A DNA stretch of 63,995 bases, counting the filler, from Hausera hauseri (taxonomy: Eukaryota): NCBI GenBank assembly GCA_046269625.1. It is 12 parts of 12 records of this genome, joined end to end, with 100 filler letters (N's around TTAATTAATTAA, not from the genome) between each part and the next. Parts side by side here need not be neighbours in the genome. Positions count along the whole stretch, not along the records: positions 49,232 to 54,495 come from JBJURY010295390.1; 11 more parts are not named here. One strand, written 5' to 3'. The position numbers and the translations under genes are program-made. Position 1 is the first letter of the stretch. Every line of letters starts with the position of its first letter. Below, piece after piece: positions 15,401-62,780 of this stretch. The notes beneath the pieces are model-generated. The model saw only the letters and a program-made list of their open reading frames with translations. It did no database searches and was not told the DNA's origin.

Positions 15401-16601
15401 TTGCTTTTCCATGGTGTGGTCTTCCTAGATGTGGTCTTCCACGGTGTGGTCTTGCATGGTGTGGTCTTCCATGGTTTGGTTTTTCAAGGTGTGGTCTTCC
15501 ATGGTGTGGTCTTCCATGGTGTGGTCTTTCATTGTGTGGTTTTCCATGGTGTAATTTTCCATTGTGTGGTCTTTCATGGTGTGCTCTTACACGCTGCAAT
15601 CATTCATGCTGTGGTCCTCCATGGTGTAGTCTTTCATGGTGTGGTCTTCTATGGTGTGGTTTACCATTGTGTGGTCTTTCACGGTGTGATCCTACATGAT
15701 GTGGTCCTTCATGGTGTGGTCCTCCATGGTGTGGTCTTCCATGGTGTGGTCATCCACGGTGTGCTCTTACACGCTGCAATTATTCATGCTATGGTCCTGC
15801 ATGGTGTGGTATTATATGTTGTGGTCTTCTATGGTGTGGTCTTCCATCGTGTGGTCTTTCCCGGTGTGTTCTTCCATTATGTTGGTTCTCATGATGTGGT
15901 CCTCCATGGTGTAGTCTTTTATGGTGTGGTTTTCTATGGTGTGGTCTTTCATGGTGTGGTCTTCCATGGTGTGGTCTTCCATGGTGTGTTCTTCCATGGT
16001 GTGGTCTACCATTGTGTGGTCTTTCATGGTGTAATCTTTCATGATATGGTCCTCCATTGTGTGGTCTTTCACGATGTCATCTTCCATGGTGTGGTCTTCC
16101 TAGGTGTGGTCTTTCACGGTGTGGTCTTCCATGGTTTGGTTTTTCAAAGTGTGGACTTCCATGGTGTGGTATTTCGTGTTGTGTTCTTCCATGGTGTAAT
16201 CATTCATGGTGTGGTCTTTCATGGTGTGGTCTTTCATGGTGTAAACTTTTATGGTGTGGTCTTCCATGGTGTGGTATTTCATGCTGTGGTGCTCCTTGTT
16301 GCAATCGTCTAAGGCGTAGTCTTGCAAGGTGAGGTCTTTTATTGTATGATCTTTCATCGTGTTTTCTTTTATGGTGTGGTCTTCCATTGTGTGGTCTACC
16401 ATTGTGTGGTCTTCATGGTGTGGACATTCCTAGTGTGTTCTTTCATTATTTAGGTTTTCATGATGTGGTCCTCCATGGTGTACTCTTTCTCGGTGTAATC
16501 TTTCATGTTGCGGTCTTCCATGGTGTGGTCTTCCATGGTGTGGTCTTCCATGATTTGGTTTTTCAAGGTGTCGTCTTCCATGGAGTGGTCTTCCGCGGTT
16601 T
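12464..16601. repeat. About 4.1-kb minisatellite, 15-bp unit CATGGTGTGGTCTTC, with higher-order variant blocks
   Basis: Reads HGVVF / MVWSS / WCGLP on + and MEDHT / RPHHG on -; variant blocks such as TTACACGCTGCAAT recur. Confidence 0.97.
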
Positions 16602-16989
16602 GAGTGCGCCTGAGACATGGGATCGAGTACTGCCCGTGACTCACATAGCGCCCAGGCCCCCTGCACGTGCAGATGTCTCCGGCACTGTCTAGGTTTTTGT
16701 AACTGAACTGTCGTCTGAACCTTCTCATTCTTTAGATAAGGACAGTCAGTAGGCTCGGCCAACGGACACCTCCCCTGACCAAGTGCAGGAAGAGTCGCCA
16801 GAACCCTGTATTTCCTAACAATGAGCATTCAGTGAGCTGTTTGAATTCGACATGTTAGAATGGCATTTACGCAACAGAAAAACCCAACGAGCTAATTAAC
16901 AGGATGATATCTGATCTTAGCGAGTCTATCAGCTTTCTCACTGAAACTGATGATTGTCTGGCCTGGTATCCACTGCATACATACATTCA

Positions 16990-27652: not shown

Positions 27653-28423
27653 GTTATTCGAAGTGCTTCGAATAAATTACGCCAATGTAATAATGCTGCA
27701 AAATGTCCAGAAAACCGGATGATACCAAGAAAAGCACCTCAGACTTTCAATACACTATTTAATATCATCCCCAAAATAATATCGACTTTCTCTACGCAAA
27801 CTAGCATCACAACTCAAACCGTCACATTAAACCATAATACATCTAACTTCATCCTTGTCGACTGGTTGCTTTTCACCCTTCTCATTGATGTGCCATCACA
27901 TTTACCTGTTCCATTTGGTGGTCTGACACTCAGTGACTACTGCTATTCAATTCTATGGATCATTGTGTATGGGTACGGTTCGATTTCTATTGATCATTGA
28001 CAAAGCATTCTTTGCTCTTTGTCTATTGGCTACTCCTATTCAATTCCAAGGTTTGTTTATTGTACCATTATGGTTCTATTGTCCCGACTGATTTCTTTTT
28101 TCACACTTGCCGTATGTGCTTCCAAACATCTACCGCACCATAAAAGAAAGCATATAACTCTGGGGTGAGGCGCTAAAAACACAGCGGAATCGAACGATCC
28201 ACCTCATGTGCATTAGTCCATTGTGGATCGTAAGTATTCACTTTCAAGTGTTCTTTTTCAAGATCTATTCAAAATTTCTTTGGTGTTTTATTCCTATCTA
28301 CCATCTATTATTGACATTGCATTTTATGAAAATATTTGAGATGTATCATTTTTTTTTTCAATAGAAAGACAATTCAAATACTTCTCAATCTGCAATGACC
28401 AGCAACTAGTGTGAACACATTAC

Positions 28424-30284: not shown

Positions 30285-33200
30285 GGCAGGCCTAGGAAAA
30301 CGAGTTTACTCACGTAGAGTTATAGCCGGTAAAATATGGCCCGGATATGGTGGAGCATGTAAAGGAGAAAGCATGATGATAAATGGACAAAAAATCCGCT
30401 GTAGTACAAATAGAAGATTTTACTGTCACCATAAAAAATATAAAGTAAACTTTGATGCAATTATAGGAAAAATGTTAAACGCACTATCTTGTACATATTC
30501 TGATGGAGTGTGTACATAGGGGAATCTACCCTAGTTTGGGAAAACACGGTCGTAATATGTCCACTATCTTTCGTTAAACAAGTATCTTTGTACGAAATGC
30601 AAGGTAATTTATATTATGATGACGAATACCAATAACCTGTACATAACTATAATATAAGTTTACCTACCCCACGAACCTTAAAACAGACCACTTCTTGGAA
30701 AGTCTTAATGTCATCCAGAGACAAAGATGGAATCGTACTGGCACGCAAATGAGCAGTATCGACTTGTGGATCGAATGCAGTTTATTCTACATCTTATGAA
30801 GACTTATTCGTAACAAAAGAAACCTTAGGGAATACAGGAAAGCTACCAACTGAAGATATAAAGTGGTACTTATACACGAATAATAAGATAGATTATATTT
30901 ATCACACGGCAAAAAGGAATTTAGTTGAGTTGTATAACATGATGGTATTAAGATATTGTAAAATCACTCAAAAATTGAATCAGAACGACGTAATACTAGC
31001 TATAGAATTTCGTGAACATATTGCTTTAATTATGGGATATCGTCCTGGAACATTTGATAGAGTACAGGGCGAAACATTCCATGTGTATCAATGCCCTCCG
31101 ATGGAGGTAACCCCAATAACAAGCACAAGACAAAATTGTACGAATGAATTAATTGTTCAGTATAATGATAAAAACATAAATAAAATTGGATATGTGGATC
31201 CTATTACTCGAAAATTATTGTTACCTACTGAAATTAGCTTTACAACATGTTATAAATATTTCTATCCAGCTTTTAAGCTTAATGACGGAAGGTGGATTAA
31301 AACACGCCCACCAATTATGATGAACATACCACACACGATTGAGTTATTACCAATGGATAAAGGTATGCAGTTTAAAGTAAATAGAGAACTCCCCACCAGT
31401 GGATTGTATTAATTAACAGACTTGGAAGCAGTAAGAAAACAAGTGTTATTCCAGAATATCCGAAAAAAGGTTACCACAGAATTTGTATATACTGTTACAA
31501 AAGGATCAGGTGGTATACCTAATTATGGAATATTACTCCCAATCGACTATTTAGAAAGAACATCTAAAAAGATCCTTTATGACTTTTGGAATAAATTCCT
31601 TATTTTTGGTCAAGTTATATCTGGAGTCTTTGGGATATATGTTATAATTACTGCCATAATGGTTATATTAAGACAGATAGGAACTGCTAGGAATATAAAG
31701 AAAGTACGTGGTTTTACATGGCAAATTATGTTTGGATGTTTTCCTTCAATGCCTCAATCAGTATTAATGTACTGGCATGCAAAGAAACTTGACAAATTAA
31801 GAAAAGAACTTCGTTTAGCCCCAGAGTTAGAACAACAGTTATAAGCTTTTATTAAGTTAACAGTGGAAGAATATCTAGTTAAATATAAATTATTAAGAAA
31901 GAAAGCTAGACAACACTCCGAGCTAGAAGCGCCCACATACTTCAAACCCGAATTTATTAATGAATTCCCAGAATACCCTGATTACAGAGAAATAAAGGTC
32001 ACGTCCAATGGCAAGATATTTAGATGAATGTACCTGTTTACCAAATACTGCTTATCCACCTAATGTCCTCCGACAATATAATACCGCTAACACTCGACGG
32101 AATAATACAAAATTCATTTTATGACCAAAACCAATACAACAACAGGAAATAACCCTTATGTTCAAGTACTATTTAATGGATTAAACATTATGGTACTACT
32201 AGATACCGGTGCATCCGTGTCAATGATTCGACATTCATACATAACTGACGTTCAAAAGGAAACAATCATGCCTAGTGATATACTAATAGCAGCAGCCAAT
32301 TCTACACAAGTACAATTTCTAGGAAAAATAAACATCAAAATAAGAATCAATGATAATCTACACACCATAACCCTGTTTGTGGTGGATGATAAAACATTGC
32401 CAGTACCCTTAGTAATAGGAATGGACGTATTATCTCAAATCTTCGGACTCTCAATGGATCTATCAACCAAAACCCTTAAATACACGATGACCAACTTGCC
32501 AATTGAGGTAATCAGCATGACCTTGACTCATGACGTTATTATCAAACCACAACAACAAATAGTGGTACTGCTAACGATACCATCGCAATACCACAAGCAA
32601 ACTTGTATGTTTGAACCGAATTTATATAATAATGAAAAATATGAGATCCTACAATATCCCCTATTTATACCAAAAGGAGTGCAAAATTTGAAATTGTCAA
32701 TGGAAAGCATTAATAAAAAGGCAATCAAGTTACGACAAAACCTTAACCTAGGACAATTACAACCGGTTAAAATATGCACAGCAACGTTCTTAGTAGAAGA
32801 TGAAAATATCAAATTTAAAGACTGTGAATTTACTTTATATCAATTAAAAAAACGATTGCAGTTATTCCACAAATATAAAGATATTATAGCTATGAATGAT
32901 AACGATATTGGCAGAACTAACGTAATTAAACATTATATAATCACAGAGAACACCTATCCTATGAAAAAAAATCCGTATAGAATGGCTGAAGTCAAGAAAG
33001 AAGAATGCGATAGACAAATAGCACAAATGGTGGAACACGGTATTATCAGACCGAGTTTCTCACCATGGACATCCCCAGTAGTATTATTGCAGAAGAAAGA
33101 TGGAGCACAACGATTCTGTGTAGATTTTAGAGCAGTAAATAATGTTATGAAGAAAGATAATTATCCATTACCAAAGATAGATGAGATGCTTACAGCTTTG

Positions 33201-39373: not shown

Positions 39374-40058
39374 AAGTAGGAGTCATATCGCCCCAACCTT
39401 ACTAGATGTCGTATGAAGCGGCTCCGCTGCAATAGCTCCCGTACCGTCAGAAAGTTCGAGTAAGACCGGTACGGGGCTCGCTTGTCGGTGTTGCGGCGTC
39501 GTTTTCCACGGGAGACGGCGTCTCGCCGGGTCGGGCATGGCTGCTCTGGCTCGAAGGTTGAAACTGGACTGTTACCCGGGCCCCGTGTTCTCGGAAGTTC
39601 TGGTATGGACCGTTTAGGTATCCGGTATCCTGATGTAAAATTAATGACTTTGTTGACTCTCGGTTTCGAAGTGATTGCCGTACCTTGTTTCCGAGTGATA
39701 GGTTCACCGATTTTCGGTTTGACGGGGGCGGCATAGACTTAATTGACTTCTCCGTCGTTCGATCCTTTCCAATTGTATTAAACGTTTCCGACATTAATGT
39801 AGAGATGTTTTTATATAATTCTGATCGTTTTTAAACTGTGCATTCAAACAAATGGATTTGAATCCACAGATTTTGATTGTTAGTTTTTTATTTATTACAA
39901 GTGATGGTTAATTCTGCACTTGTGATCCCGATTTTTAATTTTTCTATAAAGTATTTTTGTATGTTAGAAAATTTGATTTTGGTATACATTATTTGACAGA
40001 ATCCGTGATATTAAATTGTGATTTTAAATTTCATGTTATTGTAAGTTGGGACCTTACA
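39374..40058 (-). mobile_element. LTR-like end (TGTAAGG...) carrying the start of a conserved ORF; homologue of 49232-50695
   Basis: Same terminus, same three hairpins and peptide SGYRIPKRS...RAPYRSYSNFLTVRELLQRSRFIRHLV (frameshifted relative to annotated ORF 39447-39794). Confidence 0.75.
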
Positions 40059-40175
40059 ACTACTATAAGATAATTCATATCGTCCATCTTCATATTAATT
40101 CTATATGCCCCTCATATTTGCATTAATGTTTTTATATGTTGGTTTGCAAAGCCTCAACACAACCAACATATAAAT

Positions 40176-40192
40176 TGGTGCCCCGAATGAGG
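40176..40192 (+). promoter_or_regulatory. Primer-binding site, elongator tRNA-Met-like
   Basis: ...caaca tataaat TGGTGCCCCGAATGAGG versus expected TGGTGCCCCGTGTGAGG. Confidence 0.65.
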
Positions 40193-40402
40193 AAATTACT
40201 TATCTCACCTGGGAATATAACTGTGATTTTGTTAATAAGAGAGATATTAAATAAGTTAAAGTAGAAAATTATAAATTTATAAATAACAGATGATAAAACT
40301 ACCTATAATAACTTCAAAGTCGATAAATGTTAATTCTTGGAATAATAGCGTTACTAGAATTGCCCAAGTTTAACCTTGAATAACCCTGCATAATTAATAT
40401 TA

Positions 40403-40588
40403 ATGAGAATATTCGTAGATACCAAATGCAGTCCCGAAAAATGCAAGATCTGCTTTAATTCGTTGGGAAGGAAATATGTCCTATTCTGATGCATACATAT
40501 TATGTGCATCAGTTGTGAAGATCAATTGCTCAGGAGAAACCAATCCTGCGCCTTTTGTCGAAGGAAGATGACGAGTTATCAATGTTGA
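40403..40588 (+). pseudogene. RING finger (C3HC4) mini-ORF, one internal stop
   Basis: MRIFVDTKCSPEKCKICFNSLGRKYVLF*CIHIMCISCEDQLLRRNQSCAFCRRK. Confidence 0.75.
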
Positions 40589-40964
40589 GAAACTACTTGG
40601 GTAGTACTGTCTGATGATGACGACAATCAGGAACAGAATGAAATAATATTGGTGGGTGAAAACGGCATGTTGCTTGGATTACCCTGACTTATCCGATCAT
40701 GTTAATATATTTGAAATATACAGTGTTTTATTGATCTGTTGGAAAGATAATAGATAATAATAAGATTGGAATTAATTGTAGTTCACCATCTTAATTATAA
40801 TGGAATGAAAGTCGGATAATATTAGTACAGTCCGGATACCTTACTAGCAAAGTGTTTAATTCAAAGGGATGACTGATGAACCTATCAAGGGATCAAAGAT
40901 ACGCCCAATATGCGGATGCAGCATTAAATGGAAGAAAGAAATTCCAAAACTGATGTGAGGAAAC

Positions 40965-41589
40965 GTTATTTTATTGCGACAATTGTTTCAAACTAATAGG
41001 AACAGAATCAATAAACACGATTGAAGGACAGATTTTATGCCCATTGTGCACACTAACTGACGAGGATATAGAGAGGTAGAAAGAATGAACGAGACGACAA
41101 ATGTTAATTAGAGTAAATAAAAGAATACCAAAGAAAATATAAATATTACACAATATCGAAATATTAAATAAATACTGAAGAACGTATTGAATAATACATG
41201 TTTTGTTTAAAAGATCGATGGGGCGATCAAAAAGGCTGAATGAATGGGAAATAGATATATCCAAGTGATTTAGAGAACATAAATACCGTAAAGATAAAAT
41301 ACAATAATGCCAAAATAATACGCTAATTAAAATATTTTTTATAATCTGTTCATTATGTCAGAAATATACAGCAGCAACGGAAGTGGGGCAGAAACAATGC
41401 CCTGTATGCAAATTAATAGCAAAATTGGACACGAACAGGGACCAGTTCGAATGTGGCTACTGCGGAGAGATAATCAGGTTGGACATTGCTACCATAAATG
41501 AGAACTATCTACTCTTTTGCCCAATTTGTGCGTTAACTCCCGCAGACCTTGAAGAACTAGATATATTGTTTGAATTAAATGAATTATGA
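40965..41589 (+). pseudogene. Two paralogous C4 zinc-finger modules
   Basis: FYCDNCFKLI...ILCPLCTLTDEDIE (about 40968-41075) and FECGYCGEII...LFCPICALTPADLEE (ORF 41383-41589). Confidence 0.65.
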
Positions 41590-41712
41590 TAGAACGTGTA
41601 ACATTTAATAAATGTCTAAAGTATAATCACTGAAGTAGAGTTGTTAGTTGGTGTATAAAAATATTATAGAACTACTCCACTAATAAGGCAACTAAATACT
41701 TATATTTTACAG

Positions 41713-41975
41713 ATGCTTGCCACATCTGCTTGGAAGATTTGACAGTGGAGCGAACGACTTTGCCATGCAAACACCACTGTTGCCAACTCTGTATATTTAC
41801 GTGTCTATCAGAACAAACTGCTTGTCCATGTTGTAGAATAACATGCGCCCTTTGTTTAATATGCCTTAATTTGGTGGCGTTACCCTAGCAATACTCCCCT
41901 GTCGACATGCCTTTACCAAGATTCCATAATTAAGCACTTAGAAATCAATCAGTTTTGTCCTTCACGCTACAAATA
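41713..41975 (+). pseudogene. Tandem pair of RING fingers
   Basis: CHICLEDLTVERTTLPCKHHCCQLCIFTCLSEQTACPCCR, then frameshifted CLICLN...ILPCRHAF.QDSIIKHLEINQFCP; preceded by acceptor-like ttttacAG. Confidence 0.75.
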
Positions 41976-42347
41976 CGCGAATTTTTATTTTCTGGTAGAA
42001 CTGATTATTTACGTGGATACCGAAAACCGAGCGTCAATAAGCCTCATAATAGATGAAGACGAGGACGAATCGCCGGACAAATGGAGAAACCCCAGGCTAT
42101 TCATGATTACTGGCTTATAAATAAGGAGATTTTTCTGTATAACCAATTATTGTATATCTAAATTGTCAATAAAAATTAATAAAGTCGCCTTGCTCTTGAA
42201 AGGATTTAATGTCGATTTTGTTAAGATTTTCCTTGCCTATTATGCAGAAGGCATACCTTATCATATGGATTTCAAGTCCGTTTCCACTCCCGTCAAATCA
42301 CCTACTCAACCTATAACCCACAAGGAGCATTCGCACCCATCGGAACA

Positions 42348-42529
42348 CCTTGTGCAATCTGCTTGAACCCCTATTCAATGGATCCTGTGGAACGGACCAC
42401 CTGTAAACATAAATTTTGCCGATCTTGCTTAAAAGAGTGGTTCCTAACATCAACTTCCTGTCCGTTATGTCGAGCGTACAATAGGCTATTTCGAAGTGGA
42501 AATGAATACTTTACTATTCGAAAATTATA
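42348..42529 (+). pseudogene. RING finger (C3HC4)
   Basis: PCAICLNPYSMDPVERTTCKHKFCRSCLKEWFLTSTSCPLCRAY. Confidence 0.85.
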
Positions 42530-42766
42530 AATACAATGTTATTTTTAGAAGTTGTTTAATTACACGGGAGGAGGCACATAAGGGTGTAAAATAATTACTT
42601 AGTTGGTCGAAAACCTACGACAATATTTAGAGTTGTTTGTCAATAGAATAATTTATTAAACATCAAAGTTAAAACCAGTTTCGTTTTAGTCCAAATGCAA
42701 ATGATCAAATGCACTGAATATGAAACACCAAGACTATATGCATGTTAGGAATTATCCCAATCAAAC

Positions 42767-43477
42767 ATGATAGGGTACTTACGATATTATAGAAATAGGC
42801 AAAATGGACCAGCTGCATTTATCAGAAGAACAATAGATTATACCAAGATGAAAGTAGTTGACGACTCAACGAGAGATACCCAGACGAGGAAAATATTATT
42901 CTTGAGCCATCCGAATGTATCCGTTCCGGGAGAGTTAGCCCAGTTGTATGCGAACACCGAATTATTTCGAAAATTAGCTAGACAAATAAAATGCCTGTAT
43001 TGCCAAGGAGACTTCCTTTATGAGTCTACGAAAGATCAACCAAAAAGGACTCATAAGAATTTATCCCACCTGCCCTTATCTATTAACACTAATGTTAATA
43101 ACATGCAATTAACAGATAATTTTTCTAAACCGGATATAGACAAAGACATCGAATATGGCACGACAATACCAGTGCGAATGATTTATTCAACGGATAATAC
43201 AGTAGAAGAAAACTTATACCTAATTTCAAATACAGTCCATAAAAGAAAGTCAACCTTTAAAGGAAACAAAAATATTGAACATTTACCTAAACAAGGACTA
43301 ACACTAATTTCAAGAGATCAGTATGTAAAATGTACGATATACTTAAAAGAAACCTGTTTACTGGAAAATATCGAAAATAGATGCACAAATATACTGCATA
43401 CCATCAAATGCAATTATTCAATATATAAAATCCCCGAAGACACATTAAAAAACGATGCCGAATACAATCTTATATAG
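42767..43477 (+). CDS. Unidentified 236-aa ORF downstream of the RING cluster
   Basis: Open frame in AT-rich DNA, codon style like the retroelement ORFs; no motif recognised. Confidence 0.4.
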   Translation: MIGYLRYYRNRQNGPAAFIRRTIDYTKMKVVDDSTRDTQTRKILFLSHPNVSVPGELAQLYANTELFRKLARQIKCLYCQGDFLYESTKDQPKRTHKNLSHLPLSINTNVNNMQLTDNFSKPDIDKDIEYGTTIPVRMIYSTDNTVEENLYLISNTVHKRKSTFKGNKNIEHLPKQGLTLISRDQYVKCTIYLKETCLLENIENRCTNILHTIKCNYSIYKIPEDTLKNDAEYNLI

Positions 43478-44192
43478 GAAACCTTTGCGAAAGTTATCAA
43501 GAAAGTCCAGTAGCCGTATCAACAATAGCCCGACATCCTACAAAGCGCGAAAATGTTCAATATATCAAACACCAAAGAGATCCAACAAGATTGGTCTCCA
43601 AGTACATTCGAACTACTTCAGANNNNNNNNNNNNNNNNNNNNNNNNNNNNNNNNNNNNNNNNNNNNTTAATTAATTAANNNNNNNNNNNNNNNNNNNNNN
43701 NNNNNNNNNNNNNNNNNNNNNNAAGCCGTCACAGCACTAAAAGGACGTGCGAACAATCCAACGTGCCGACTAAATATACGGATCGAGGAAATTTCACGAT
43801 AAAATATTGAATTTCAATATAAACATGGTAATAAACATGACGCTGACGTACTATCAAGGTTAAAAACAAGGACAAGTGCAATAACAACCATGAAGAAAAC
43901 TCAACTTGAAGAAATAATGGACCGACAACGAGCATTGGCATTGGATAAAGCAATCAAAATTTCAACTGAACAAAAGAAAGATAAGGATATAAAACAAATT
44001 ACAGAGTTTGTGGAAAATGACAACGCCAAAAAAATCACCAACTACGAAAACATTTACAAAGACACGGTCATAAGTATTGTGTAACAGGAGACAAAAGCCA
44101 TGAAGACGTGCTATACTATGAACGAAAGGGACGCAAATTAGTAGTCATACCAAAGGGATTACTCACAGAGGTACTAATAGCCGAACACGATT

Positions 44193-46863: not shown

Positions 46864-49231
46864 TATGTTTTGGAAGAAGACATTAGAAAGAATATTAAAT
46901 ACATATTACTGGCCCAGCGTATACATCGATATGAAAAACTGGGTAAGCGCTTGTGAAGTATGCGCTACCAAACAGCAAAAAGTTACATTGCTGACCTAAA
47001 TCCAATAAATGTACCGGAAAGACCAACACAAGCAATGCCCATGGATATCGTAGGACCTTTACCTACAACTCACAAAAGTAACAAATACATCCTGATGCGT
47101 ATAGACCTATTAACCCACTTCGTCGAATTAATGGCATTAGTGGATCAAAAAGCCCAAACCATGGCAAAAGCCGTAGTAAGGAAGATTATCTGTAGATGTG
47201 GACCTCCCGAACAGATTTTAACGAACTGAAGAAGAAACTTTACGAGTGAATTATTAGATAAAATTACCAATATATTTGAAATTTAACGATTAGACACAAC
47301 AGCTTATCACCCCAATGTAATGGAATGGTCGAACGCATGAACGCGACAGTTATACAAATCTTGTCGACAGTAGTCGCAAAATACCAGAAGGATTGGCATG
47401 AATTTCTAGGAGGTACACAATTTGCTATCAATACTACACCACATCTTGCGACCGGATTTAGTCCATTTTTTATAATGTACGGTAGAGAAGCCATACTACC
47501 AACAGACCTAGGGATGATACCGTATACGACAAAAACAGAAGACTTAAATCAAAATTTTGTCGAAGTGTTACAAACGAGATTCCGGAAGTGTTGGGAAGTA
47601 GAAAAAAAATTGTCTCAAGAGTATCAAAAACAATTTAAGAAACAATAGGACAGGAAGACTAAACCACATAATTTAGAACAAAGAAATTTGGTTTATGTAC
47701 ATTACCCAGTAGTCAAGAAAGGTACATCTTTGAAGCTCACTCAAACTAGAAGAAAACCTTATCAGTTATCAGAACCACGCCGACCACGATTTATATTAAC
47801 GAAAATGGCAAGGAAGAAGTCGTTTCAATAAAAAGAGTGGTTAAAACAGGAATAAAACGAAATAAACGCTATAACTTACGTTCAAGTAAAGAAAATCCAG
47901 GTCAAAGAAAGAAAGAAAAGAAAGCGTCATCTATAGTAACCCGGCCAATATTGTATGCACAGATAATCATTGCACTATTGCTAATAACTTCATATATGCC
48001 AAAGGTAAAGACAATGGATAATGGATATAGTAAACGATATCCACGGAGTTGTGCCATATTTTCCAACTGAAAAAGATCAACATGCAGAAAGGCGAAAATA
48101 TATAGAATTTACAGTCGATTATAGTCCACAATATGGATTGGAACAAACCATGCGCCTGGTTTAAGGCAACTGAATCCCTTAAAAACCACATGAAATTTCA
48201 AATAATATTTGTAGATCAAGTCAATACTGCAATGAGGACATGTAATTTTCCGTATCGAGCCTATCAAAAATGTTGCAAATTAGAATTCGGACGAACATAT
48301 AAATATAATTTAAAATGTTCTATTGTAATATGACCGGAGCTCAGGCCTACATAAACACCGAAATAAAAATGCCTCAGAGTAACGATGCAAATGAAGCTAA
48401 GACGGACGATATAGACCGGAATACCGATCCGTTTAAGAGACTTCTAGATTACAACATTACTGGATTCTCTAAAGACGTTAAAAAATGATGCTTTCAAATT
48501 AAGATCAAAATCGAGTTGCCAGTAGACAGACAAATTTCCATTCGATTCGTACCATCAAATTCATCGACACTCTCAGCGAAATATTGCTATACTGCACAGA
48601 AACGGAACAATCCATGTTGTGAATTGCCACTGGTATACGAGTTCCAGGTACATTTCGATCTGTATAATACTTACCCAAACGACCCAAGCACCTGTTTAAG
48701 AGGATATCGTCCAAAAGTCGGAATATGGGAAATTTCGTTCTCAAAAACCACGAGAAAACCATCGACCACACCAACCACAACTATTACTACTAATATTGCG
48801 ACCTCGAGCAAAATGCCCGAGAGAGAATTAGAAAATATACCTATTAAATTTTTGGTACGGCATAATAAAATGGTATTTTACGTTAAAGAAACTTTGGGCT
48901 ACGAAGTTAAAATTGAGTGCCGCACTTTGCATGCCAACCAAATTGTAATCTTAAGAAAGAATAGTCAGGAAATTGAATGCTAATCCCTACAATCACTGAA
49001 TGACTATATAATTCAAATTACTGCAGATGGTAAGAGACATAAAACTTTTACAGTACGAACTCTAAACAACAAAGTTCAAGAAATGCAATATAAGGGTACT
49101 AGTACTCAAAATGCGATTACCACGAAAAATTNNNNNNNNNNNNNNNNNNNNNNNNNNNNNNNNNNNNNNNNNNNNTTAATTAATTAANNNNNNNNNNNNN
49201 NNNNNNNNNNNNNNNNNNNNNNNNNNNNNNN

Positions 49232-50695
49232 GTAGTGATTTTCTGATTGACAGCCGTGCTGGAAGTGTTCTCAGCGGAAATTGTGTGATCACGTTTAGTG
49301 ATGTGAGTATTTGGGGCCGGATTATTGTCGACGGCACTAGTGATTGTATGCACCGGATGAATATCTATGGTTCTGTCCGAAAGGGACGTGTGTGCGGTAA
49401 CCGCTGCCACCATTTTAGTAAATCTATTCTTTACCAAAAAATAACACGTGAACAAGACAAGAAATAAACAAAATAAATAATGTTTGGAAAGTTTATTTAT
49501 GTCCATAGGTTCATCCAGGGAAATGTACGATTCGTCCGTGTCCGTGGAAGATAAAGCCGGGTCGTTTCTGGAACCGTGTCGGAAATCTGTCGGAGCATCG
49601 TCCGAGCCGGAATCGGTTGGTACTGTTCTTGTCATCTGTCGTCGGCGACGACGACACGGTATTGGCGAGTCCTGCGAGCTTGCGATCCCCCGACGTTTCG
49701 GGATTAGCCGACTCTCGGAGGGAGCCAATGACTCGTACAGTCGGTCGGTTGCTGTCATCAACCGCAGGAATATAGGGAGGAAGACCGCCGAGTCAAATAG
49801 ACGACGGTTGCCTCCATCCTGGTAGAACCGGTTGAGCAGGTTGGCTGGAAGAGAGTAAGGATCGTCTCTTTCCAGGCTGACCAGGTGCTTTATGAAGCGA
49901 CTCCTTTGAAGGAGTTCCCGTACCGTCAAGAAGTCCGAATAGGACCGATACGGGGTTCGCTTGTGAGTCTGTCGAGGTTTGCTGACTAAAGCAGCGTGTC
50001 TCTCGTTTGGGCAGGACTGTTCCTGACCGGTGGGAGTACTTGGAATGCTATCTTGGTTCGGTATTCCCGTCGGTTTCGACCGTTTAGGGATACGGTATCC
50101 TGATGGCAAGTTGGTCATCCCATTGATTTCGGTTGTGGAAGTGACTGGAGTGCCTAGCTTCGGCGTTATCGGTTTGTCGGTTTTCGGTTTGGTCGATTCA
50201 CAACGGTTGTTTACAGCATCGGATAGTGCGGCTGTGTTGTTTTTCCGGACTATGGGTTCTCCGGGTTTCGCTATAACTGCAACGTGGTTCCTTCTTTGGG
50301 TTCCTGTCATCGCCTTCATGTTCTTGGTATCGTGACTTGGTACGGACATCGTTCGCTTATTTTTATTCACTGCGTTTTCTTTTTTTTTGAATTATTCTGT
50401 TCAATCTCTGAACTGTGGATTCAAACAAAAGATTAAATCCACAGATCTTGATTGTTTTTTTATTTGTTACAAGTGCTGGTCGCTTCAGCACTTGTAATCA
50501 TGATTTTATTTTTTCTATTTGTATTTTTGTATTTGGGATTTTTAAATTTTTTGTAGTTTCGTGGGTTTTATTAATTTGAACATGAATCCGTGATTTTAGC
50601 TTTTGTTTGCTGTTGGTTATATTTTTAAATTTTAAGATTGGGATTTTTAATGTAGGCGAATTAAGTTTGGTATTTTTGTAAGGTGGAACCTTACA
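49232..50695 (-). mobile_element. Long LTR-like sequence containing an ORF of at least 380 codons (50370 to contig end)
   Basis: Minus strand purine tract then TGTAAGG; ORF with basic/disordered N-part, conserved RTPYRSYSDFLTVRELLQRSRFIKHLV core and hydrophobic YLFCLFLVLFTCYFLV; homologue at 39374-40058. Confidence 0.7.
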
Positions 50696-50696
50696 A

Positions 50697-50713
50697 GGCT
50701 CCCCCGCCTGAAA
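50697..50713 (-). promoter_or_regulatory. Polypurine tract (PPT)
   Basis: tttcAGGCGGGGGAGcc-t-TGTAAGG on the minus strand, ending where homology with the other copy begins. Confidence 0.6.
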
Positions 50714-52265
50714 ATTAAATTGAAAGCATCCGTTGATTTCAATTTTATATTTTACAGTAAAGGGTTAATTTTTTGAACATGTTAATGAATTTTGAGTTAA
50801 CTGAGAATTTTAAATTAACTAATAAGTTTTGCTATTATATTCTAAGGTACCTTTTATGAGCTTGTCATAGAATATTATAACATGAAATACAGTTTCAATT
50901 GAAAAATTTTACATTTGTTGTTTTAGTAAATAATAAGATACATTTAGCATACAATTATTAATATCTACGTGCTTTTAATAAATGTAAGTTAGATTTTTCA
51001 ATATTAGAATTTACTTCAATTATAAAATCTAGACTCATAATATTCATTTGAATAAAATTGTTAGAAAAGTGCGTAATTCATGTGTATTTTGGTTCCATAC
51101 GGAGGGAATATTTCTGCAGGAAGTAACAATATAGAAGTATAACATTGTGAAACCAGTTACATAGGATGTATGACTACGCGACAAAATTAAATTTTTGAAA
51201 CATTTATAGAATTTTTGATTTCTTAAATGTAATCGGTTTATGTAGAATTCAGGCCTGATTAAATTTAGCAGAGTATGAATATGCGCTATTCAACTACATA
51301 GGAAATTCTCAGTAAATCGGAAATAATTTGTTTTAATATTTATTGTTTATTTAAAATTTTTAAATTTTAGGTTTCAAAACTAAACGAATTGAATCGGTTT
51401 TTGTTTTGCCGTTGTAAAAAACATTTTTTAATATTCAGGACAGATAATTTTACTCGAGAATTACTTTTTATTACTTCATATGAAGTGAATAAGGTTAAAG
51501 TTTGGATCTAAAGTTTGTTCGTAGTTAGAAATGAAAAGTTTTAGACGAAGTGCTTTACACTTTTAGTAATTATTATAAAATTTTTTTAGTATTAATAATC
51601 GTTAAACGCTTTATAAAATCTTAGTCCTTATTATCTGGTACTTGGATTTTTTGTAATTGTACTACATTTTTCGTGTGGAAAATTTTGAAAAATTCCATAA
51701 TTGAAATTATCTCTTGTTGAGTGTTTATGGAACCTTGTAATGATGTTGTAAAGTTAAACAAAAACATTCAACAACAGTTACTGAACTTTATAATCTCGCT
51801 GTATAACAAATGCGACAATGATTTACACGATTTTACAGTATAATAATAAAATTACGCAATCTTTAATTAATTGCAAGTATACTTAAATTCATAACTGGTT
51901 TTCTGCTCATCATCATGTAACTGAAATACGCAATAATTGAAATTCCAAATTGGCTAAATGTGTTTAGGGTTTAAATTACTATTTTACATATTTGAGTTAC
52001 AGGGTGATCAGAATTAACAATTTTTTAACAAAACCAATTAAATATTTAAGAATTCACAAACACTGAATAAATTACTAAAGTATAGAGTTTCTAAAATGTA
52101 ATTGATATAAATAACTAATTTGTTTTTTTACTGTTTGTCTAGCCGTTAATACATTTTCATATTTTTGAAATGTTCCCGGATTCTCAACAATATTCCATTT
52201 TGTTTGTTTTATTACGCATTTTGGCAAAAAGTTTAAAAATACCTGACGGTCTGTTTTACTAGACA

Positions 52266-52638
52266 ATGGATTCAAATGATTTAAAATTTCTCACGGAACC
52301 AATTCGAGCATTTATTCGGGATTTTGCATATGCAATTAAGGAACGGAATATTATTCATATAGAAAATTATTACAAAATTGAGTAATAATAGTTTTAAATT
52401 TTATGCGAGAATTTTACTTTCATTAGATTTCCAAAATTGACGGAAAAGTATTTCAAAAGCACATCATGACCACCAATCTTTATAATTTCTACGATAGTGA
52501 ACGATGACCAGACATTTTTGATTTTGTACCAGGAAATGTACTATCGTCATTTGTATGCCCATGTGTCTAATTCTATATCGCTGAAAGATGGCATTGCATC
52601 ATATTACAATTATTGCGACTTGTTTAACATGATTTTAA
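52266..52638 (+). pseudogene. EIF3L: eIF3 subunit L N-terminal fragment, 45-nt intron (52382-52426), premature stop
   Basis: FPKLTEKYFKSTS*PP...NDDQTFLILYQEMYYRHLYAHV...ASYYNYCDLFNMIL versus conserved KLTERFFK.TPWP...FLILYKELYYRHIYA...ESYYNYCNLFNYIL. Confidence 0.85.
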
Positions 52639-52639
52639 G

Positions 52640-53496
52640 ATAATGGATATCGTCTGACAAATCTCGGCTATGATTATTTGGCGTTGAATAAATTTTTGAA
52701 ATCGGGCATTGTTTCAGATTTAAGTTTGTTTCAGATTATTGGAACCGGAAAAGAGTCTGATATTTATGTTGGACTTTCCGGTCAAAAAACCGAAGCCAAT
52801 TATTCGTTACCAGTTGATATTCCAATCGTTTTAAAATTCCACCGACTTGGTCGAACGTCGTTTAAGCAAGTAAAGAATAAAAGAGAATACAAAACTGGAA
52901 ACAAATGTTCATGGTTATATATGAATCGGTTGTCGTCAACTCGGGAGTATGTTACGATGAAAGTTAGTTGATTATTGATTTCATTTTACATGACCGTTAA
53001 TACTAACAGTTAAAATATTTTGATTTCCATTGGTTAAAGTTATGAAAAATATTTTGATTTATATTTTTACATTGTCCCATTTTTGATTAACTTTCCTGAT
53101 GATCAATACTCTGTCGAATCTTTTCAGCTTAGAAGTCACTCACACACAAGCATTATGGCAATATAATTGAAAATTTTTAAGGAACTTCACAACGCCGGAT
53201 TCCCGTACCATTGCCTATTTTTTACAATCGCGGATCATTAGTCATGGAATATATCGGCAACAGCATACCGTTATTTAAATTTTCCAAATCTGTTTTGGAG
53301 AGTGGTGCTGCTGTCGTTTTGTATCGTCAGGCCATAAAATTACTGATGGATATGGCCAAAAATGGTCTTGTTCATGGGGATTTGAATGAGTTTAATTTAC
53401 TGGTGAGAACGAACTGTGACATTGATATAAATATGCCGAAAAATGACGACAGTGCAGGAAGTGTTGTTGAGGATAATGAAGAGAGTGAACAGTCGT
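52640..53496 (+). pseudogene. RIOK2: RIO2 kinase internal fragment (exons about 52640-52962 and 53182-53496), frameshift near 53205
   Basis: GYRLTNLGYDYLAL...IGTGKESDIY...LKFHRLGRTSF...SWLYMNRLS; GFP/VP...VMEY...GLVHGDLNEFN; GT-AG intron 52963-53181. Confidence 0.9.
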
Positions 53497-53994
53497 GTAA
53501 GTATAGGCATAACTAATGAGTCATTAGTGACTGTTGATAATCAATTGCTAATGTATTGTTGGTGGATAATTTTCTGTTGAAAAACATGCACCATTTTCCT
53601 TTGCTGTATTCTGTACTACACTAAAATTATAAAGTTCATTAACGGGGTTTTGCGCCAAAAATTTATACTCAAGGAAACGCATTTTACTGTAAATCTGGCA
53701 TAGTCTGAGAGGCGTGTAAAATATAATGTTTTTAGAGGTCTAATATTGTTCATAATTTTTGAAACTTTATGAAGAAAGTCATTGAGCGTATACGGCATGT
53801 CATTCTTTGAATTTGAGGACGGCAGTAACGCAAATGCATGCGCTGGGAACAGTCACAGTGCATTCTAGTGGTTGTGGATTTGGTAGAGGGCTCGAGTGCG
53901 TTGGCATTGCGTTGGCCAAGATGCACCTTTTCTGTTATGCTGAGTTTGGCAGATTTTATAACGTTTATAAACTCGAGACTGTGTACACTGCGAG

Positions 53995-54375
53995 GCTGCA
54001 TGGGGCGCACTCGTCACCTATAAAAAATGGCATGTGAGCGCCGGTTTCGGTCCTGTGGGTTTGATTCCCACCTGTCTTATTGTGGCGTTTGTGCCATATG
54101 CAGCCAAGCGCGTCTGTGAATGGTGTCGAGGTAGTATATGTCGATAACTTGGCCAGTTGCGCATAACGCAACCTGGTAGTGTAATAACGGCTGTTAAGTA
54201 GTCCGTCAAGTATTTTTAGTTGATAGATGTCAGGGTTCTTAGCGAACTTCTAATGCTTCGTCCGGTTGCATGTAGCATGTGCGTCGCTTATTAAAAGCGG
54301 TATGGGCGAGTGCCGATTCGGTACTGTGGGTTTGATCCCCACCTGCTTTAATGCGACGTTAATGCTGCATGTGAT
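53995..54375. repeat. Diverged direct repeat, period about 271 bp, each copy with a tRNA T-arm-like stem-loop
   Basis: GTGGG-TTTGATT-CCCAC (54055-54071) and GTGGG-TTTGATC-CCCAC (54326-54342) in homologous context. Confidence 0.6.
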
Positions 54376-54595
54376 CGGGTACTCTTTCTTTCGATCTTGT
54401 AGGGTTTCACTGTAGTCGAGGTATCTTTGATGCACTCCTGGTGCGACTTGATACCGGTGCGGCTGGGATTTGGGTTCGTATTGTCGTACGTTCCGNNNNN
54501 NNNNNNNNNNNNNNNNNNNNNNNNNNNNNNNNNNNNNNNTTAATTAATTAANNNNNNNNNNNNNNNNNNNNNNNNNNNNNNNNNNNNNNNNNNNN

Positions 54596-57500: not shown

Positions 57501-59530
57501 TTGACTCTATCGCGATCCTGTAGTATAATCAAAAGATCTTGGTTATCATACTTGATTAATGGCTTATTTAGTGCTGAACAATTTTGGATTTCAGTAGGTA
57601 TTGTATGTGATGCCAGAAGCACTCTGAGGATTGGTTGCACGTATCAAATTTCTTCATTATATTTGACAAGTATTTCAGAGTAACACGGGGAACCCGTAAT
57701 TAATGGTAATTCTAAACGTTTACATATATATGTATGTAGCACCTCTCCTAAAATCTGCCCTGGATTCCTTCTCCAAATGGGAAAATTATCGTTATCATTT
57801 CCGAGTTAGACGCATAATTGGCTAAGCGATTTCTTAGAGTTTCAAAGTTAACTTTGCAAAAGTTTTGAATTGTTTCAGAATATATTTTCTCAATTGTTCT
57901 ATGAATCAAATAGAACAAAAAATCATCTCTGTTTGCAATATAATCAGCAATGTTTACTAACTGAGCCTTATTAGTAGGCGAATTATCAGCACCTTTGATT
58001 TCCTTTTCTGATATAAAATGTTTGTCGTAATTCGTACTAAATACTTGTTATCCACACTTTGTAATCGCATCTTGTTGATTAAATTTGACTCCTCCTGTAA
58101 TATCCTTGGATATTNNNNNNNNNNGTTTTTACTTTGGGAATGACTTGAATATTAGTATGTTCAGAAGTGGTCTTATAGTGCCGTGAGTAACGTTTTCCCG
58201 TAGTTACATTAAATTCTCCCCTTCGTATTTGTACTAATGTACAATCATAACTTGTTGGCAATTTCCAAACTATTGTGGATGTTTTTAGCTTGCAGAAGAA
58301 TGCGTCCATCATTGTATTTATACTAGTTTCAAAAATATAAGTATTATCCTTAATCTCAGCTTATATTGGTCGTGTACTACAATACTTGCTTCGACACCTT
58401 TACCGGTATCAAAATTTCCTTCTCTACAATTACCTTTTTCATCTTTATAACCAGCGATCCATATTTCTTGTTGGGTTACTTGTCCTCTTATTGAGGTCAA
58501 CAAAATGTCATCCCATTTCAACTGCAGGGTTTCTCCCGCATCTCTACAATATGTAAGGTTAACTGACACATATTTAGGCATATTGGTTGGCTTAATATAA
58601 GAGTCATGATCTAGGTGACCGCAGTGAGAAATGGTACGGGATACGCGCAGTGAAAATTCCACTCCTTTTATGTGTAACATAGTTTTGTCGTAGTAAATAT
58701 ACAAATTTTGCGTTTGAGTCTCCAATTTCCTTGGAAGGGCATCCGAACAAGATTGTAGATCCATCAAGGAGTAGTAGTTTCCCCGCATATATTTGGTCGC
58801 AATAATATGCCAATATAGTTCCTGTCCTTTAAAAATTTGTGAATAGTACCAACAAGAGTAGAATAAATTGTAAAAATGTTCCGTTATGTTTTACGCCATC
58901 ACTCTTCTGGACTTCTTCCTGTATTTGATTTGACATTTTCTCCATAATAATGCGAACTATTTCTTCTTGAGATGCATTTTGAGTTATTTCAAATATAGCT
59001 TTCTCTATGTTTGTCTGTTCTACTTCGGATTGCATTTCCTTCCCATTTTGTAAAAACAAATCACTCCATTTTCTTTACAGCTGAATAACAGATTTGCTGG
59101 CGAGAATTATTTTACCGGTTGTAATTTTAAATTCGGCTTTGCTGGGTGTTTCTAATATCAGTAACAATGTCACCTTTTCGAGTATTAAGCGGGATAGTGT
59201 TTCGAGGATTAGCTGTATAATATCATTATTGTTTAAGTTTTCCCATTCTGAATTTTTCTTAAGAATTTTTATAAATTTTAGTTGCTCTTTAACTCGTTTC
59301 TTCCATTTTTAGATCCAGAGTTTATTGGATCCTTTCCAGTCTCTATGTAATATATTTCTCTACCTAGTTTCTTCACTTCTTTGTATTCTTTATACAAGTT
59401 TGGGGTTTCATAATCCATCATTTGAGTAACAAAATTCCTGACAATAGTTATTTATATAGAATAAGTAAGTAAATCAGTTCAGATTTTATTTAAACGTGTT
59501 TGAAATTGCACTAGTTTTGGTGTCAATAAT
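54596..59530 (-). mobile_element. Decayed 'env-before-pol' Gypsy-type retroelement, copy 3 (helical region, signal, glycoprotein, TM, linker, PR, dUTPase-like, RT)
   Basis: FLQFILLLLVLF..AYYCD; VSRTISHCGHLDHDS; GNCREGNFDTGKGVEASIVV; WGGFLRFGQVAS TM; MADTGANVA; RT SLWPSPIV, YRLCVNY, LDLQSGFW, VPFGLKTAP. ORFs starting 59059, 58813, 58312, 57640, 57238, 56890, 56395 and 55915 share one frame. Confidence 0.9.
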
Positions 59531-59925: not shown

Positions 59926-62780
59926 TTGCATTTGTCGAAATTGATTTCGGGATTATGATGGTTAAGACGTTGGAATATTGCGCGAAGGTGTTCTTCGTGT
60001 TCTTTGGCGAAAGATGAAACTACTAAAATATCATCGATATAAAGGTGTGCAAAAGGGAAATTTGCAAGAATTGAATCGATGTGGCGCTGAAAAGTTTATG
60101 CGGAATTTCTCAAACCAAATGGCATAAATAGGTATTCGTAGAGACCAAAAAAAGTAGTTATTACAGTTTTTTCTATGTCTTCGGGTGCTACCGGTATTTG
60201 ATGGTATGCTTTAGCTAAATCAATTGTTGAATAGATGGTGGTTGAATTAAGGCGATGTAAGATATTCTTGATGAGTGGTAAAGGATATGCGTCCATGATA
60301 TTCAAGTTATTCAGTTGTCGGTAGTCACCGCATGGTCCAAAAGTACCGTCCTTTTTGTACAACGTGTAAAGGTGATGACCAAGGAGATTTAGAACGGCTT
60401 ACTATGCCGGAACTTTCTTGTTCTACAAATTCTGCTTCTACGGCCTGTCTTCGACGAGGTGGCAAAGGCCGTACTTTTTGGCGTATCGGACGTTGGTGCT
60501 GTGTGGCTATGTGGTGTAAAATGCTGTTTGCGGGAGTAAAAGTACGATTTTTTTTAAGTACGCGTAAACATGATTTGTTGACGAATTGCTGTAACGTTGT
60601 AGGTAGCTGTGAGAGATTCGATGAAAGTGGTGAAACGGTTTGGGTAGTAGCGGATGCAATTTGTGAGTTGTTAGGTAATGTGCAGTCAAGTGGTATTTTG
60701 TGTAATATGGTTGAATTGAAGATGGTGTTGAATAAAGTTACTTTGCTGAATGGAACCATGTTGGTGGCAGTACCACACTCATCGACATCAAATCTCGATC
60801 GTATATCCATATTATTGTTTAAAAATTTACGAATGGAATTATTGTTATAAAAAATAGAATTATTCATTGACTTTCCCAGGATTGACTTCCGCCCCCCGGT
60901 CAACTGCGCAGTAGTCGAAACGCAATTTACATGTCCAGAAATGTCGCCAACGGTGCCTCTCCTCAAACACCGCTGACTGCAGTGAATCAGTAAGTTGTAG
61001 TGTGTGAGAAAGTCAGATCCAAGAATTGCCGACTGGACGTTAGCGATTGTGAACGTCCAGTGGAAAGTTGAAAGAAAATTCGGCAGAGTGAATGATAATT
61101 TAGTCGTATCAGAAATGTGCAGCGGTTAGCCTGAAGCAGTGTATAAGTGTTTGATATTGAATGGAGTATTTTGTGCGGGAAAAGTTGATGGTACTAAAGA
61201 AATTGCTGCACCTGTATCGATGAGAAAGTCAGTAGATTTTGTTGATGGGGCAGTGATTGCAGCCTTTAAAGTAAAGACTGCAAAAGAGACGTGTCGGCGT
61301 ACAGAATCTGAAGCAGAGCCTTTTCCAGAGTTTGTCGTGATCTCTAACGGCGAACTTAGTTTTTTTGAAAAAATAAACTTGGACGACTGTGAGAAGTGAA
61401 GGCAGTACGCCCGTCGTTCGTATTAGATTTGAAGGTACAGCCGGGGATACATTTACGTGCTTGATTTTTGAATCTTGCATGGTAAGTGCAAACAACGGTG
61501 TTCGAGGAAAAATTCTTGTTATAAAATTGGCACCCCAGGCCGCACTTCTGGGCATTAGTGTTGAATCTTCTGTGGTAATAGCAGATCGATGAACGCGCAG
61601 GCGATGGTGAGCAGCTTCGTGACGTAGAACGGGTACGGGCAGCGGCAAAACTCCCCGTCCGGACAAAGACAGTTCATTTTATTTAGTATTGATGTTGCTG
61701 ATTGTTGCCTGCAATGCAATATTTTCAGAACGTAGCTGATTAAGCTGTTGTTCTATGCATGTATTGTTGTTAGTTGCAACTGCTGCTAAAATAACTGATG
61801 GAGAATTTACATGTAGGACATCGTGTGTCCTATCAGCTAACTCGGCCAATTTTTCAAGCGGTGTGGAATCCCCCACCACGGTAAGGAGGGCCCGGATTTG
61901 AATAGGTAGGGCATTAAGAAAATAGTGGCGCAGAAGATCTGGGTTGTGCTCCTTAGTGACGCCAAGAGTACGTAAGTGAGCTAACGAGATGCGTAGGAAG
62001 TCACTGAGTTTTTGTGTCCCCATTGCATTTTCATTAAAGGAACGTTGCATTATGGAGTCGATTGATGGTTTTGTCTGTTTTAATACAGCATCGAATAATT
62101 GGGTATAAGGGTCATGGTGTTGAAAGATGTCTAGTAAGTTATGGATTGAGGCTTTTATGGAGTTTGGGAGAAGATAAAGTAGGCTATGGGCTTTGGATAA
62201 GGAGTCTGTGATACTGTTGGACTGTAATCAGAGTTGATGGAAGTGGAGGCACGTTTTTCTGGACTTTTCTTTATCTATGAAGTAGTCAGTGCAATGTGGA
62301 GAAGTATTGATAGGATTTTTGTCGGTTGAAGTAGGTGTATGATTTGGTCTGGTGTAGTAGAAAAAGGGTATTTCCTTTTTTGTGGTGGTTGTATCCGTGG
62401 TATCAATGGTTGGCGAAGTGTTCATGCCACCACTGATACGGCAATGTATGATGAAGCAAGTGTGATTTGAGAAAGGAGGTAGAGTTCCGTTGAGATGTAT
62501 GATAGCGCCGTTTTGATTGAGGTAAAAGTCGGGAGAATTAAGTAAGGAAGAAATGCAGGTCTGAAGGGTGAGAATGTGTGGATGTGTTGTATTTAGTGTG
62601 TAGATATGTATATTGTTAAAAAAGAAAATGGATGTGGCAGCAGTGGTGCACCTGGGGGCATAATGTGTGGCCGACGTCGAAGGCGCCGTACGACCGACCG
62701 GCGCAGGGTTGGCGGTTGGAACCTCCGCCCCGATGGGGCGGGCACCAAAATGCAGGGTACCCGAGTTTCCCCTCAAACTG
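59926..62780 (-). mobile_element. Decayed Ty3/Gypsy element (gag, PR, RT), same family as 8460-11353
   Basis: SPTIDTTD gag start; LLRHYFLNALP; LIDTGAAIS; PWSSPLHVV, GDYRQLN, DAYPLP, MPFGLRN, YIDD. Confidence 0.92.

Follow-up and report, generated by a model that had tools for sequence, protein, structure and literature searches.

A probable Ty3/gypsy long terminal repeat with a long, evidently protein-coding frame open into gag in Hausera hauseri

In the copia element Ty1, Gag begins inside the 5' LTR and a few of its codons lie in the LTR, while MMTV sag and lentiviral nef are U3 genes that are expressed from the 3' LTR and stop short of the poly(A) site. An N-terminally extended Gag with an accessory function exists in MLV (glyco-Gag), and in pestiviruses with ubiquitin insertions host cleavage after the ubiquitin GG releases the downstream protein. 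DIRS/Ngaro elements have no tRNA primer-binding site (PBS) or polypurine tract (PPT) beside their repeats. LTRs are generally treated as non-coding, and annotation pipelines seek extra ORFs between the LTRs only; in the available sections of PMC7264820 and PMC3485330 the extra ORFs of LTR retrotransposons are placed in the internal region. For CsRn1-like elements, LTR termini TGT...AAA or TGT...ATA are given in the accessible part of PMC2582038 and the clade motif MSYYAMA in that of PMC3601003, which also describes a poly(A) signal near the LTR end and a short U5 as usual in animal Metaviridae LTRs, with R often short. In the MDG1 group, the accessible text of one preprint reports two orphan accessory ORFs, sORF1 and sORF2, which lie upstream of gag and evolve under purifying selection, sORF1 being helical, nuclear and expressed from its own short polyadenylated transcript (bioRxiv 10.1101/2025.03.14.642691).

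The window analysed here, the whole stretch of 63,995 nucleotides from Hausera hauseri, consists of small contigs in a row, separated by N44-TTAATTAATTAA-N44 linkers. Fragments of PCF11, eIF3L and RIOK2 mark this DNA as eukaryotic, and the types of retroelement present suggest an invertebrate animal. At the left end of the contig 49232-54495 (49232 being the contig end) lies an LTR of a multi-copy element, with a long open frame, referred to as copy A; a homologue, copy B, occupies the left end of the contig 39374-43622. Contigs assembled from five of eight listed public runs (X1-X5) were compared with copy A. About 73% of this LTR codes for a protein that has no family or fold match and that is under selection across families.

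This locus shares with the CsRn1 clade (CsRn1, PwRn1, AgCR), as presented in the available parts of PMC2582038, PMC3601003 and PMC3630058, the LTR termini (TGT at 50695, AAA at 49416-49414) and the 3' motif YYAMA; the CX2HX9CX3C Gag of the clade is represented here by the closest relative, the protein P0002, and by two gags of the window, copy A ending before that region. It differs from the clade in LTR length (1,282 bp, where the table rows in those parts give 146-383 bp and the training mean is 330 bp) and in its PBS, which in the clade is complementary to tRNA-Trp (TGGTGAG/CCCCGT/A) and here reads TGGTGGCAGCGGT; since the PBS is not of the tRNA-Trp type, we call the element CsRn1-like, not CsRn1. 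Neither a 312-codon LTR frame nor a ubiquitin-like domain in Gag (found here in the relative) is mentioned in the available parts of these three papers. The MDG1-group sORF1 and sORF2, at ~110 and ~70 residues, are separate ORFs in the accessible text (bioRxiv 10.1101/2025.03.14.642691), whereas here LTR sequence is fused to gag; ORF0 of Retrosat2, in the available part of PMC3485330, is likewise an orphan ORF upstream of gag under purifying selection, but it is described there as a separate ORF and not as part of an LTR.

The open-access text searched, with Repbase, GyDB and most subscription journals outside it, contained no gypsy LTR coding for ~300 residues in frame with gag. As in Ty1, the Gag frame here comes from the LTR and the PBS falls within the coding frame; however, Ty1 has few LTR codons, whereas this gypsy LTR has 312, with a conserved domain of their own. 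As with sag and nef, the coding sequence would be duplicated in both LTRs, but the frame here lacks a stop and joins gag, and no sequence or fold link of sag or nef to the LTR protein was found. MLV glyco-Gag and the pestivirus ubiquitin insertions may be regarded as functional analogies only to the leader and the ubiquitin-like domain with its GG discussed below. The LTR differs from DIRS/Ngaro repeats in having both a PBS and a PPT.

The features that define the LTR are the following:
49414..50695, minus strand: LTR, 1,282 bp, TGTAAGG...TTTACTAAA
50699..50709, minus strand: polypurine tract AGGCGGGGGAG, read from the sequence, 3 nt before the LTR; absent before copy B
49400..49412, minus strand: primer-binding site TGGTGGCAGCGGT, one base after the LTR, overlapping ATG 49413
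50696..50790, minus strand: remnant of the 3' internal region, ~95 bp, upper limit approximate, low-depth DNA beyond
39374..40058, minus strand: copy B, a diverged LTR that lacks a PPT and is truncated by the contig end after its first 685 bp

An earlier note on this DNA had described an apparent LTR, with a PPT followed by TGTAAGG at 50695, and a homologue at 39374-40058 that starts at the same TGTAAGG and has no PPT. These observations are correct (AGGCGGGGGAG at 50709-50699 and TGTAAGG at 50695, both on the minus strand; no purine tract before copy B), and the LTR itself is borne out by contig ends at 50695 and 49414, by flanks without a PBS and by the TGT...AAA termini. At the left end, an X1 contig of depth 207 begins exactly at 50695, and at the right end an X1 contig of depth 244 stops exactly at 49414, the DNA flanking the LTR having a depth of 10-59 in this run. 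Two contigs (one X1, one X3) continue beyond 49414 into DNA that is not a PBS, as expected of 3' or solo LTRs, and an X5 contig (49395-49621, 2 differences) passes from the ORF tail through U5 into the PBS. The left LTR end thus occurs with a PPT in copy A and without one in copy B, and the right end is PBS-linked in copy A and X5 and free of a PBS in X1 and X3. The contig breaks at both ends, together with the non-PBS right flanks, indicate that the repeat unit is TGT...AAA, 1,282 bp. Summed contig depth, which is not a copy number, is higher over the ORF core and hairpins than over the gag start by a factor of 1.9-2.1 in X1, 2.8-2.9 in X3 and 1.3-1.5 in X2; the roughly twofold value in X1 is what two LTRs per element would give, a weak argument for the same reason. 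The PBS string TGGTGGCAGCGGT has a single exact match within the whole window, has 0 differences in public-run contigs from a related family with a non-alignable U5 and presumably matches tRNA-Leu; a literature search with this string returned unrelated papers only.

The locus thus shows a bounded repeat with and without an internal region, a PBS after and a PPT before the LTR, and gag after the PBS, as in Ty3/gypsy elements, and we conclude with high confidence that 49414-50695 is an LTR; copy B is a 5' or solo LTR. In copy A, the PPT and the PBS flank one and the same LTR, and internal DNA upstream of it amounts to ~95 bp only: the X1 depth is 9264 in the bin 50674-50776 versus 10-59 across the next 15 bins, loose ends occur in X3 and X4 at 50719 and 50793, and the remnant (50696-50790) contains a weak hairpin (z -2.1). 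The junction between the LTR start and the low-depth DNA is bridged by no contig among those listed. This arrangement is either a remnant of a tandem element or a collapsed assembly. The earlier note was also right that no pol lies upstream of the PPT; no full-length element, with both LTRs on one element, was found in the contigs compared, and no related loci appeared in viral or JGI metagenome contigs searched with the ORF alignment and with the gag alignment. A reading of the terminal 'ACT' as a decayed 'ACA' was rejected, related contigs having it too and the repeat ending at AAA, as were ORF-less LTR variants, the X2 joint 49420-50403 including an unknown stretch. Read on the element strand, the two right flanks observed both open with GTTG, and the left flank of copy B (40059-40064) ends in AGT before TGT; these letters, from three flanks only, point to a possible target preference.

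Most of this LTR is occupied by a single frame:
49234..50349, minus strand: open frame of 372 codons up to where the contig ends, of which 312 lie in the LTR and 60 in gag

On the minus strand, stop codons are absent from the frame between 50391 and the contig end (49232), and its first ATG is at 50349, so that the coding part of the LTR is 936 bp. The earlier note had placed an ORF of more than 1.1 kb within the LTR, beginning about 325 bp inside it. Its length stands, with 372 codons from ATG 50349 and a stop-free run of equal length in 0/1000 shuffles of 49417-50391; its location stands for 312 codons, the last 60 being outside the LTR, at the start of gag. Over the 29-codon core, where about 14 synonymous and 4 replacement codon differences between copies A and B had been counted, we find 16 and 4, distributed 7/2/15 over the three codon positions. 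The proposed purifying selection is confirmed by a dN/dS of 0.15 over all 111 alignable codons (0.27 over 75 N-terminal codons), and in a six-frame comparison identity is highest in the ORF frame (29/36 residues; runner-up 23/35). Copy B has an ATG (39794) at a position equal to that of copy A, and its frame is broken near 39730.

Variants among the public contigs were pooled from all 26 rows of one contig comparison and 40 of the 109 rows of another, rows outside the ORF frame being dropped; these variants are not independent of each other, which limits the following counts. Taken singly, 13/21 are synonymous in the core (expected 0.26, p 5e-4) and 8/15 in the tail, residues 223-312 (expected 0.23, p 0.01), while those listed in the gag start (2 synonymous, 6 replacement; n=8) show no synonymous bias. 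No row reports an insertion or deletion in 49395-49830 in 4/4 runs. Synonymous sites are near saturation between the families compared. Taken together, the LTR frame is almost certainly protein-coding.

Two parts of the encoded protein are conserved:
50083..50100, minus strand: GYRIPK motif, residues 84-89, invariant in 3/3 homologues
49684..49953, minus strand: conserved core, residues 133-222, four helices predicted, no fold match

Residues 1-132 are basic and of low complexity, and C-terminal of the core there are an RRRRR patch and an acidic tail. The core model, built from three sequences, is of modest confidence (pLDDT 66, pTM 0.46). A full HMMER scan of 1.84 billion proteins returned 2 matches, P0001 and P0002, the latter being the gag-start match; P0001 (213 residues) is 50% identical over residues 81-222 and 61% over the aligned core. 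Two word-index protein searches gave no match and P0001 alone, respectively. The LTR protein has no match in Pfam, PHROGs or PDB sequences, nor do residues 120-240 in the ESM Atlas. Foldlike matches to the core model reach at best E 2.1 in BFVD and E 6.0 in PDB, and the best VIA result (Z 5.0, rmsd 2.8, 61 aligned) is background for a helical model. Based on its composition, including a basic and disordered start, and on the analogues MDG1 sORF1 and Cer1 CERV, one tentative guess is that the protein could be an accessory factor that is nuclear or binds RNA, with the RNA of the element itself as its target.

Several further elements of the LTR bear on how this frame may be expressed:
50677..50695, minus strand: terminal hairpin at the LTR start, 19 nt (z -4.35 in copy A, -2.95 in copy B)
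50467..50497, minus strand: conserved hairpin 1, 12-bp stem, variable loop
50459..50464, minus strand: AATAAA between hairpins 1 and 2, also in copy B
50414..50445, minus strand: conserved hairpin 2, 12-bp stem
49492..49497, minus strand: AATAAA close to the end of the LTR, a candidate poly(A) signal
49432..49479, minus strand: T-rich downstream tract, encoding a hydrophobic stretch, residues 291-306

The LTR head upstream of ATG 50349, about 345 bp, is AT-rich. Hairpins 1 and 2 considered jointly (50497-50414) have z -8.19 in copy A and -2.99 in copy B, and a common X1 variant, 50482, falls in the loop of hairpin 1. The AATAAA at 50459-50464 is a candidate upstream poly(A) signal; its surroundings are 49% A, so that it could be there by chance. 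Near the other end of the LTR, 49463-49497 is kept in a related family (X2, X5) with 4 differences in 35 nt, both sides having diverged. An AATAAA with a T-rich tract after it is the arrangement given for animal Metaviridae LTRs. Features of the interval 49232..50713 that the earlier note lacks are the candidate poly(A) signal (49497), the end of the LTR (49414) and the PBS with the gag start (49413/49412). The possible transmembrane (TM) segment of that note is not sustained: it corresponds to the T-rich tract after AATAAA (49417-49509 is 47% T), where a second frame is equally hydrophobic (best 15-residue window 2.82 vs 2.77), and it was discarded as evidence by itself. The best 19-residue hydropathy is 1.71, and the LTR protein is far longer than small TM fusogens (sORF2/FAST-like), which are short proteins with a single TM helix next to a polybasic region. 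Compared with MDG1 sORF2, as described in the accessible part of the preprint (bioRxiv 10.1101/2025.03.14.642691), the LTR protein has no TM support beyond base composition. Residues 291-306 would be hydrophobic if translated but do not count as evidence of a membrane anchor.

The frame extends from the LTR into gag:
49232..49413, minus strand: gag start, cut by the contig end

From ATG 50349 there is no stop across the LTR end and the PBS into gag, and an X1 contig covering 49414-49568 has 0 differences, hence its frame is likewise open. The earlier note had named, as a refutation, a gag-like first ORF following a short LTR and PBS; this case does not apply, since the PBS is found after the ORF core, but the ORF is in frame with gag. 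The gag start is 46% identical to P0002 residues 129-200 (72 columns, E 3e-15); P0002 matches the last 45-60 residues of the frame only, the match beginning at Met 49413. This ATG, which overlaps the PBS, is itself conserved and could be a real gag start. P0002 is a Gag, in view of its weak DUF7041 hit (E 1e-4, below the curated cut-off), its two CX2HX9CX3C motifs and its likeness to two further gags of the window; no further relatives of P0002 were found.

Three lines of evidence weakly suggest that the frame shared with gag is kept. In a related family (X2, X3), whose core has 20 differences in 115 nt, the spacing between core and PBS is 258-259 nt instead of 225-226, a gain of 33 nt that keeps the frame. 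In P0002 the frame stays open over the 128 codons that precede the Met overlapping its PBS, for which the chance probability is 8e-5 to 2e-3 at 35-50% GC; the likeness of these 128 residues to the LTR-encoded leader is confined to the last ~20. The third line is given by the tail variants described above. A stop-free T-rich tract is cheap, with a probability of 0.10-0.23 for 31 codons at ordinary composition.

P0002 also contains, at residues 270-347, a ubiquitin/SUMO fold (Foldseek probability 1.00, best E 3.5e-4; VIA best Z 7.4, rmsd 2.5, 70 aligned) that ends in LKGG ahead of the capsid part, and GG is present in the matching column of the two window gags (8595-8786, plus strand; 62414-62632, minus strand). 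This fold is seen in the relative, not in copy A. With its GG in front of the capsid part, such a fold would provide a site for removing a leader, and its presence in the Gag of the relative suggests that a retrotransposon Gag is processed by a host protease; in the literature searched, we found no description of such processing in the CsRn1-like clade.

How the LTR frame is expressed is much less firm than its LTR status or its coding status. We favour, at about an even chance, a Gag leader encoded by the LTR, made by translation from the 5' LTR and probably removed by cleavage. The element would be a CsRn1-like Ty3/gypsy retrotransposon with a 1,282-bp LTR and a promoter in the AT-rich first 345 bp, which would put hairpins 1 and 2 and the ORF in R/U5 of the genomic RNA. 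Ribosomes would start at ATG 50349 and read into gag, producing a leader of roughly 310 residues; a host deubiquitinase-type protease, as imagined from P0002 only, may cut after GG and free the capsid from the leader, and reverse transcription would leave a copy of the ORF in the 3' LTR as a by-product. If the ORF is in R/U5, the minus-strand strong-stop DNA would be ~1 kb long and solo LTRs would spread an intact gene. Against this leader count the frameshift of copy B, the length of P0001, which ends at 213 residues shortly after the core, and the one-in-three chance that a length difference such as the 33 nt keeps the frame. The mostly unrelated upstream part of P0002, the possibility that ATG 49413 is the true gag start and the lack of synonymous bias among the gag-start variants also speak against it.

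The same observations bear on a less likely alternative, in which 5', 3' and solo LTRs alike would yield a short LTR-internal transcript, running from the AT-rich head to the poly(A) site after 49497, and from it a free-standing accessory protein. Being in frame with gag would then be secondary, and this proposal is compatible with a Gag leader. It accounts for the AATAAA and T-rich tract kept at the nucleotide level in the related family and for the 213 residues of P0001 (if P0001 ends by a stop, the protein would be free-standing in its family), and it has a precedent in the short polyadenylated transcript of an MDG1-group accessory ORF, as far as the accessible preprint text goes (bioRxiv 10.1101/2025.03.14.642691). 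In the family of copy A, however, the frame reaches the LTR end without a stop, so that termination would need either a family-specific stop or, as a speculation with which the codon positions agree, a stop that the poly(A) tail completes after cleavage within the TAT codon at 49479 (13-14 nt past the hexamer). The open upstream frame of P0002 is left unexplained.

The earlier note placed the ORF in U3, and a U3 gene of the MMTV sag or lentiviral nef type, expressed from the 3' LTR only, through an RNA that is spliced or has an internal start, and with its promoter situated downstream of the ORF, would agree with the position of the ORF within the repeat and with the poly(A) signal near the LTR end and short U5 usual in animal Metaviridae (available part of PMC3601003). 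This is unlikely: neither copy A nor the X1 contig has a stop before the poly(A) site, so that a gene of the U3 type expressed from the 3' LTR would lack a stop codon; the DNA directly upstream of 49497 is coding, with synonymous bias, and the AT-rich, hairpin-bearing, promoter-like part sits upstream of the ORF. A combination of two products, in which an invertebrate gypsy lineage would have brought an entire accessory gene into the transcribed portion of its LTR, appears rather improbable. One product would be a read-through Gag fusion from the 5' LTR, cleaved by the host after the GG of the ubiquitin-like domain, and the other a free protein that any LTR can make, with a poly(A)-completed stop; if true, every solo LTR would be a self-contained protein-making gene.

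That the repeat is no LTR at all, belonging instead to a tyrosine-recombinase retroelement with split repeats or to a DNA transposon, or arising from unrelated repeats through chimeric assembly, is very improbable. In favour of this reading, one copy is flanked by both PPT and PBS with only ~95 bp of internal DNA ahead of it, no pol is seen, both right flanks begin with four identical letters and the contig 49232-54495 has an eIF3L exon abutting an internal RIOK2 exon, but the termini, PPT, PBS and CHCC-type gag all fit a gypsy LTR, the link from ORF tail through U5 to PBS recurs in X5 and core-PBS links occur in X2 and X3. The DIRS-like element that the earlier note had envisaged is contradicted by the PBS and PPT beside the repeat.

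The remainder of the window contains other features. In the contig 49232-54495, in which no Rfam family or tRNA was detected, an eIF3L exon (human residues 134-168, E 1.6e-8) and an internal RIOK2 exon (residues 71-166) adjoin at 52533-52968 on the same strand with zero gap, as a result of rearrangement, nesting or misassembly. At the far end of this contig, 54012-54089 and 54282-54360 are two diverged copies (76%) of a GC-richer 80-bp repeat with no tRNA or Rfam match. Decayed env-like frames of the Monjiviricetes fusion glycoprotein family occur at 1811-2215, 30753-31409 and 58321-58890 (E 1e-10, 3e-27 and 5e-7), in contigs that also carry protease- or RT-like frames. After an integrase fragment (46957-47645), the interval 47750-48983 contains broken frames and a signal-like hydrophobic stretch, with no Pfam match, and is possibly an unrelated env-like or accessory ORF. 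A degenerate tandem array of 4.1 kb with long open frames spans 12465-16602, and a PCF11 gene is located at 25227-27676.
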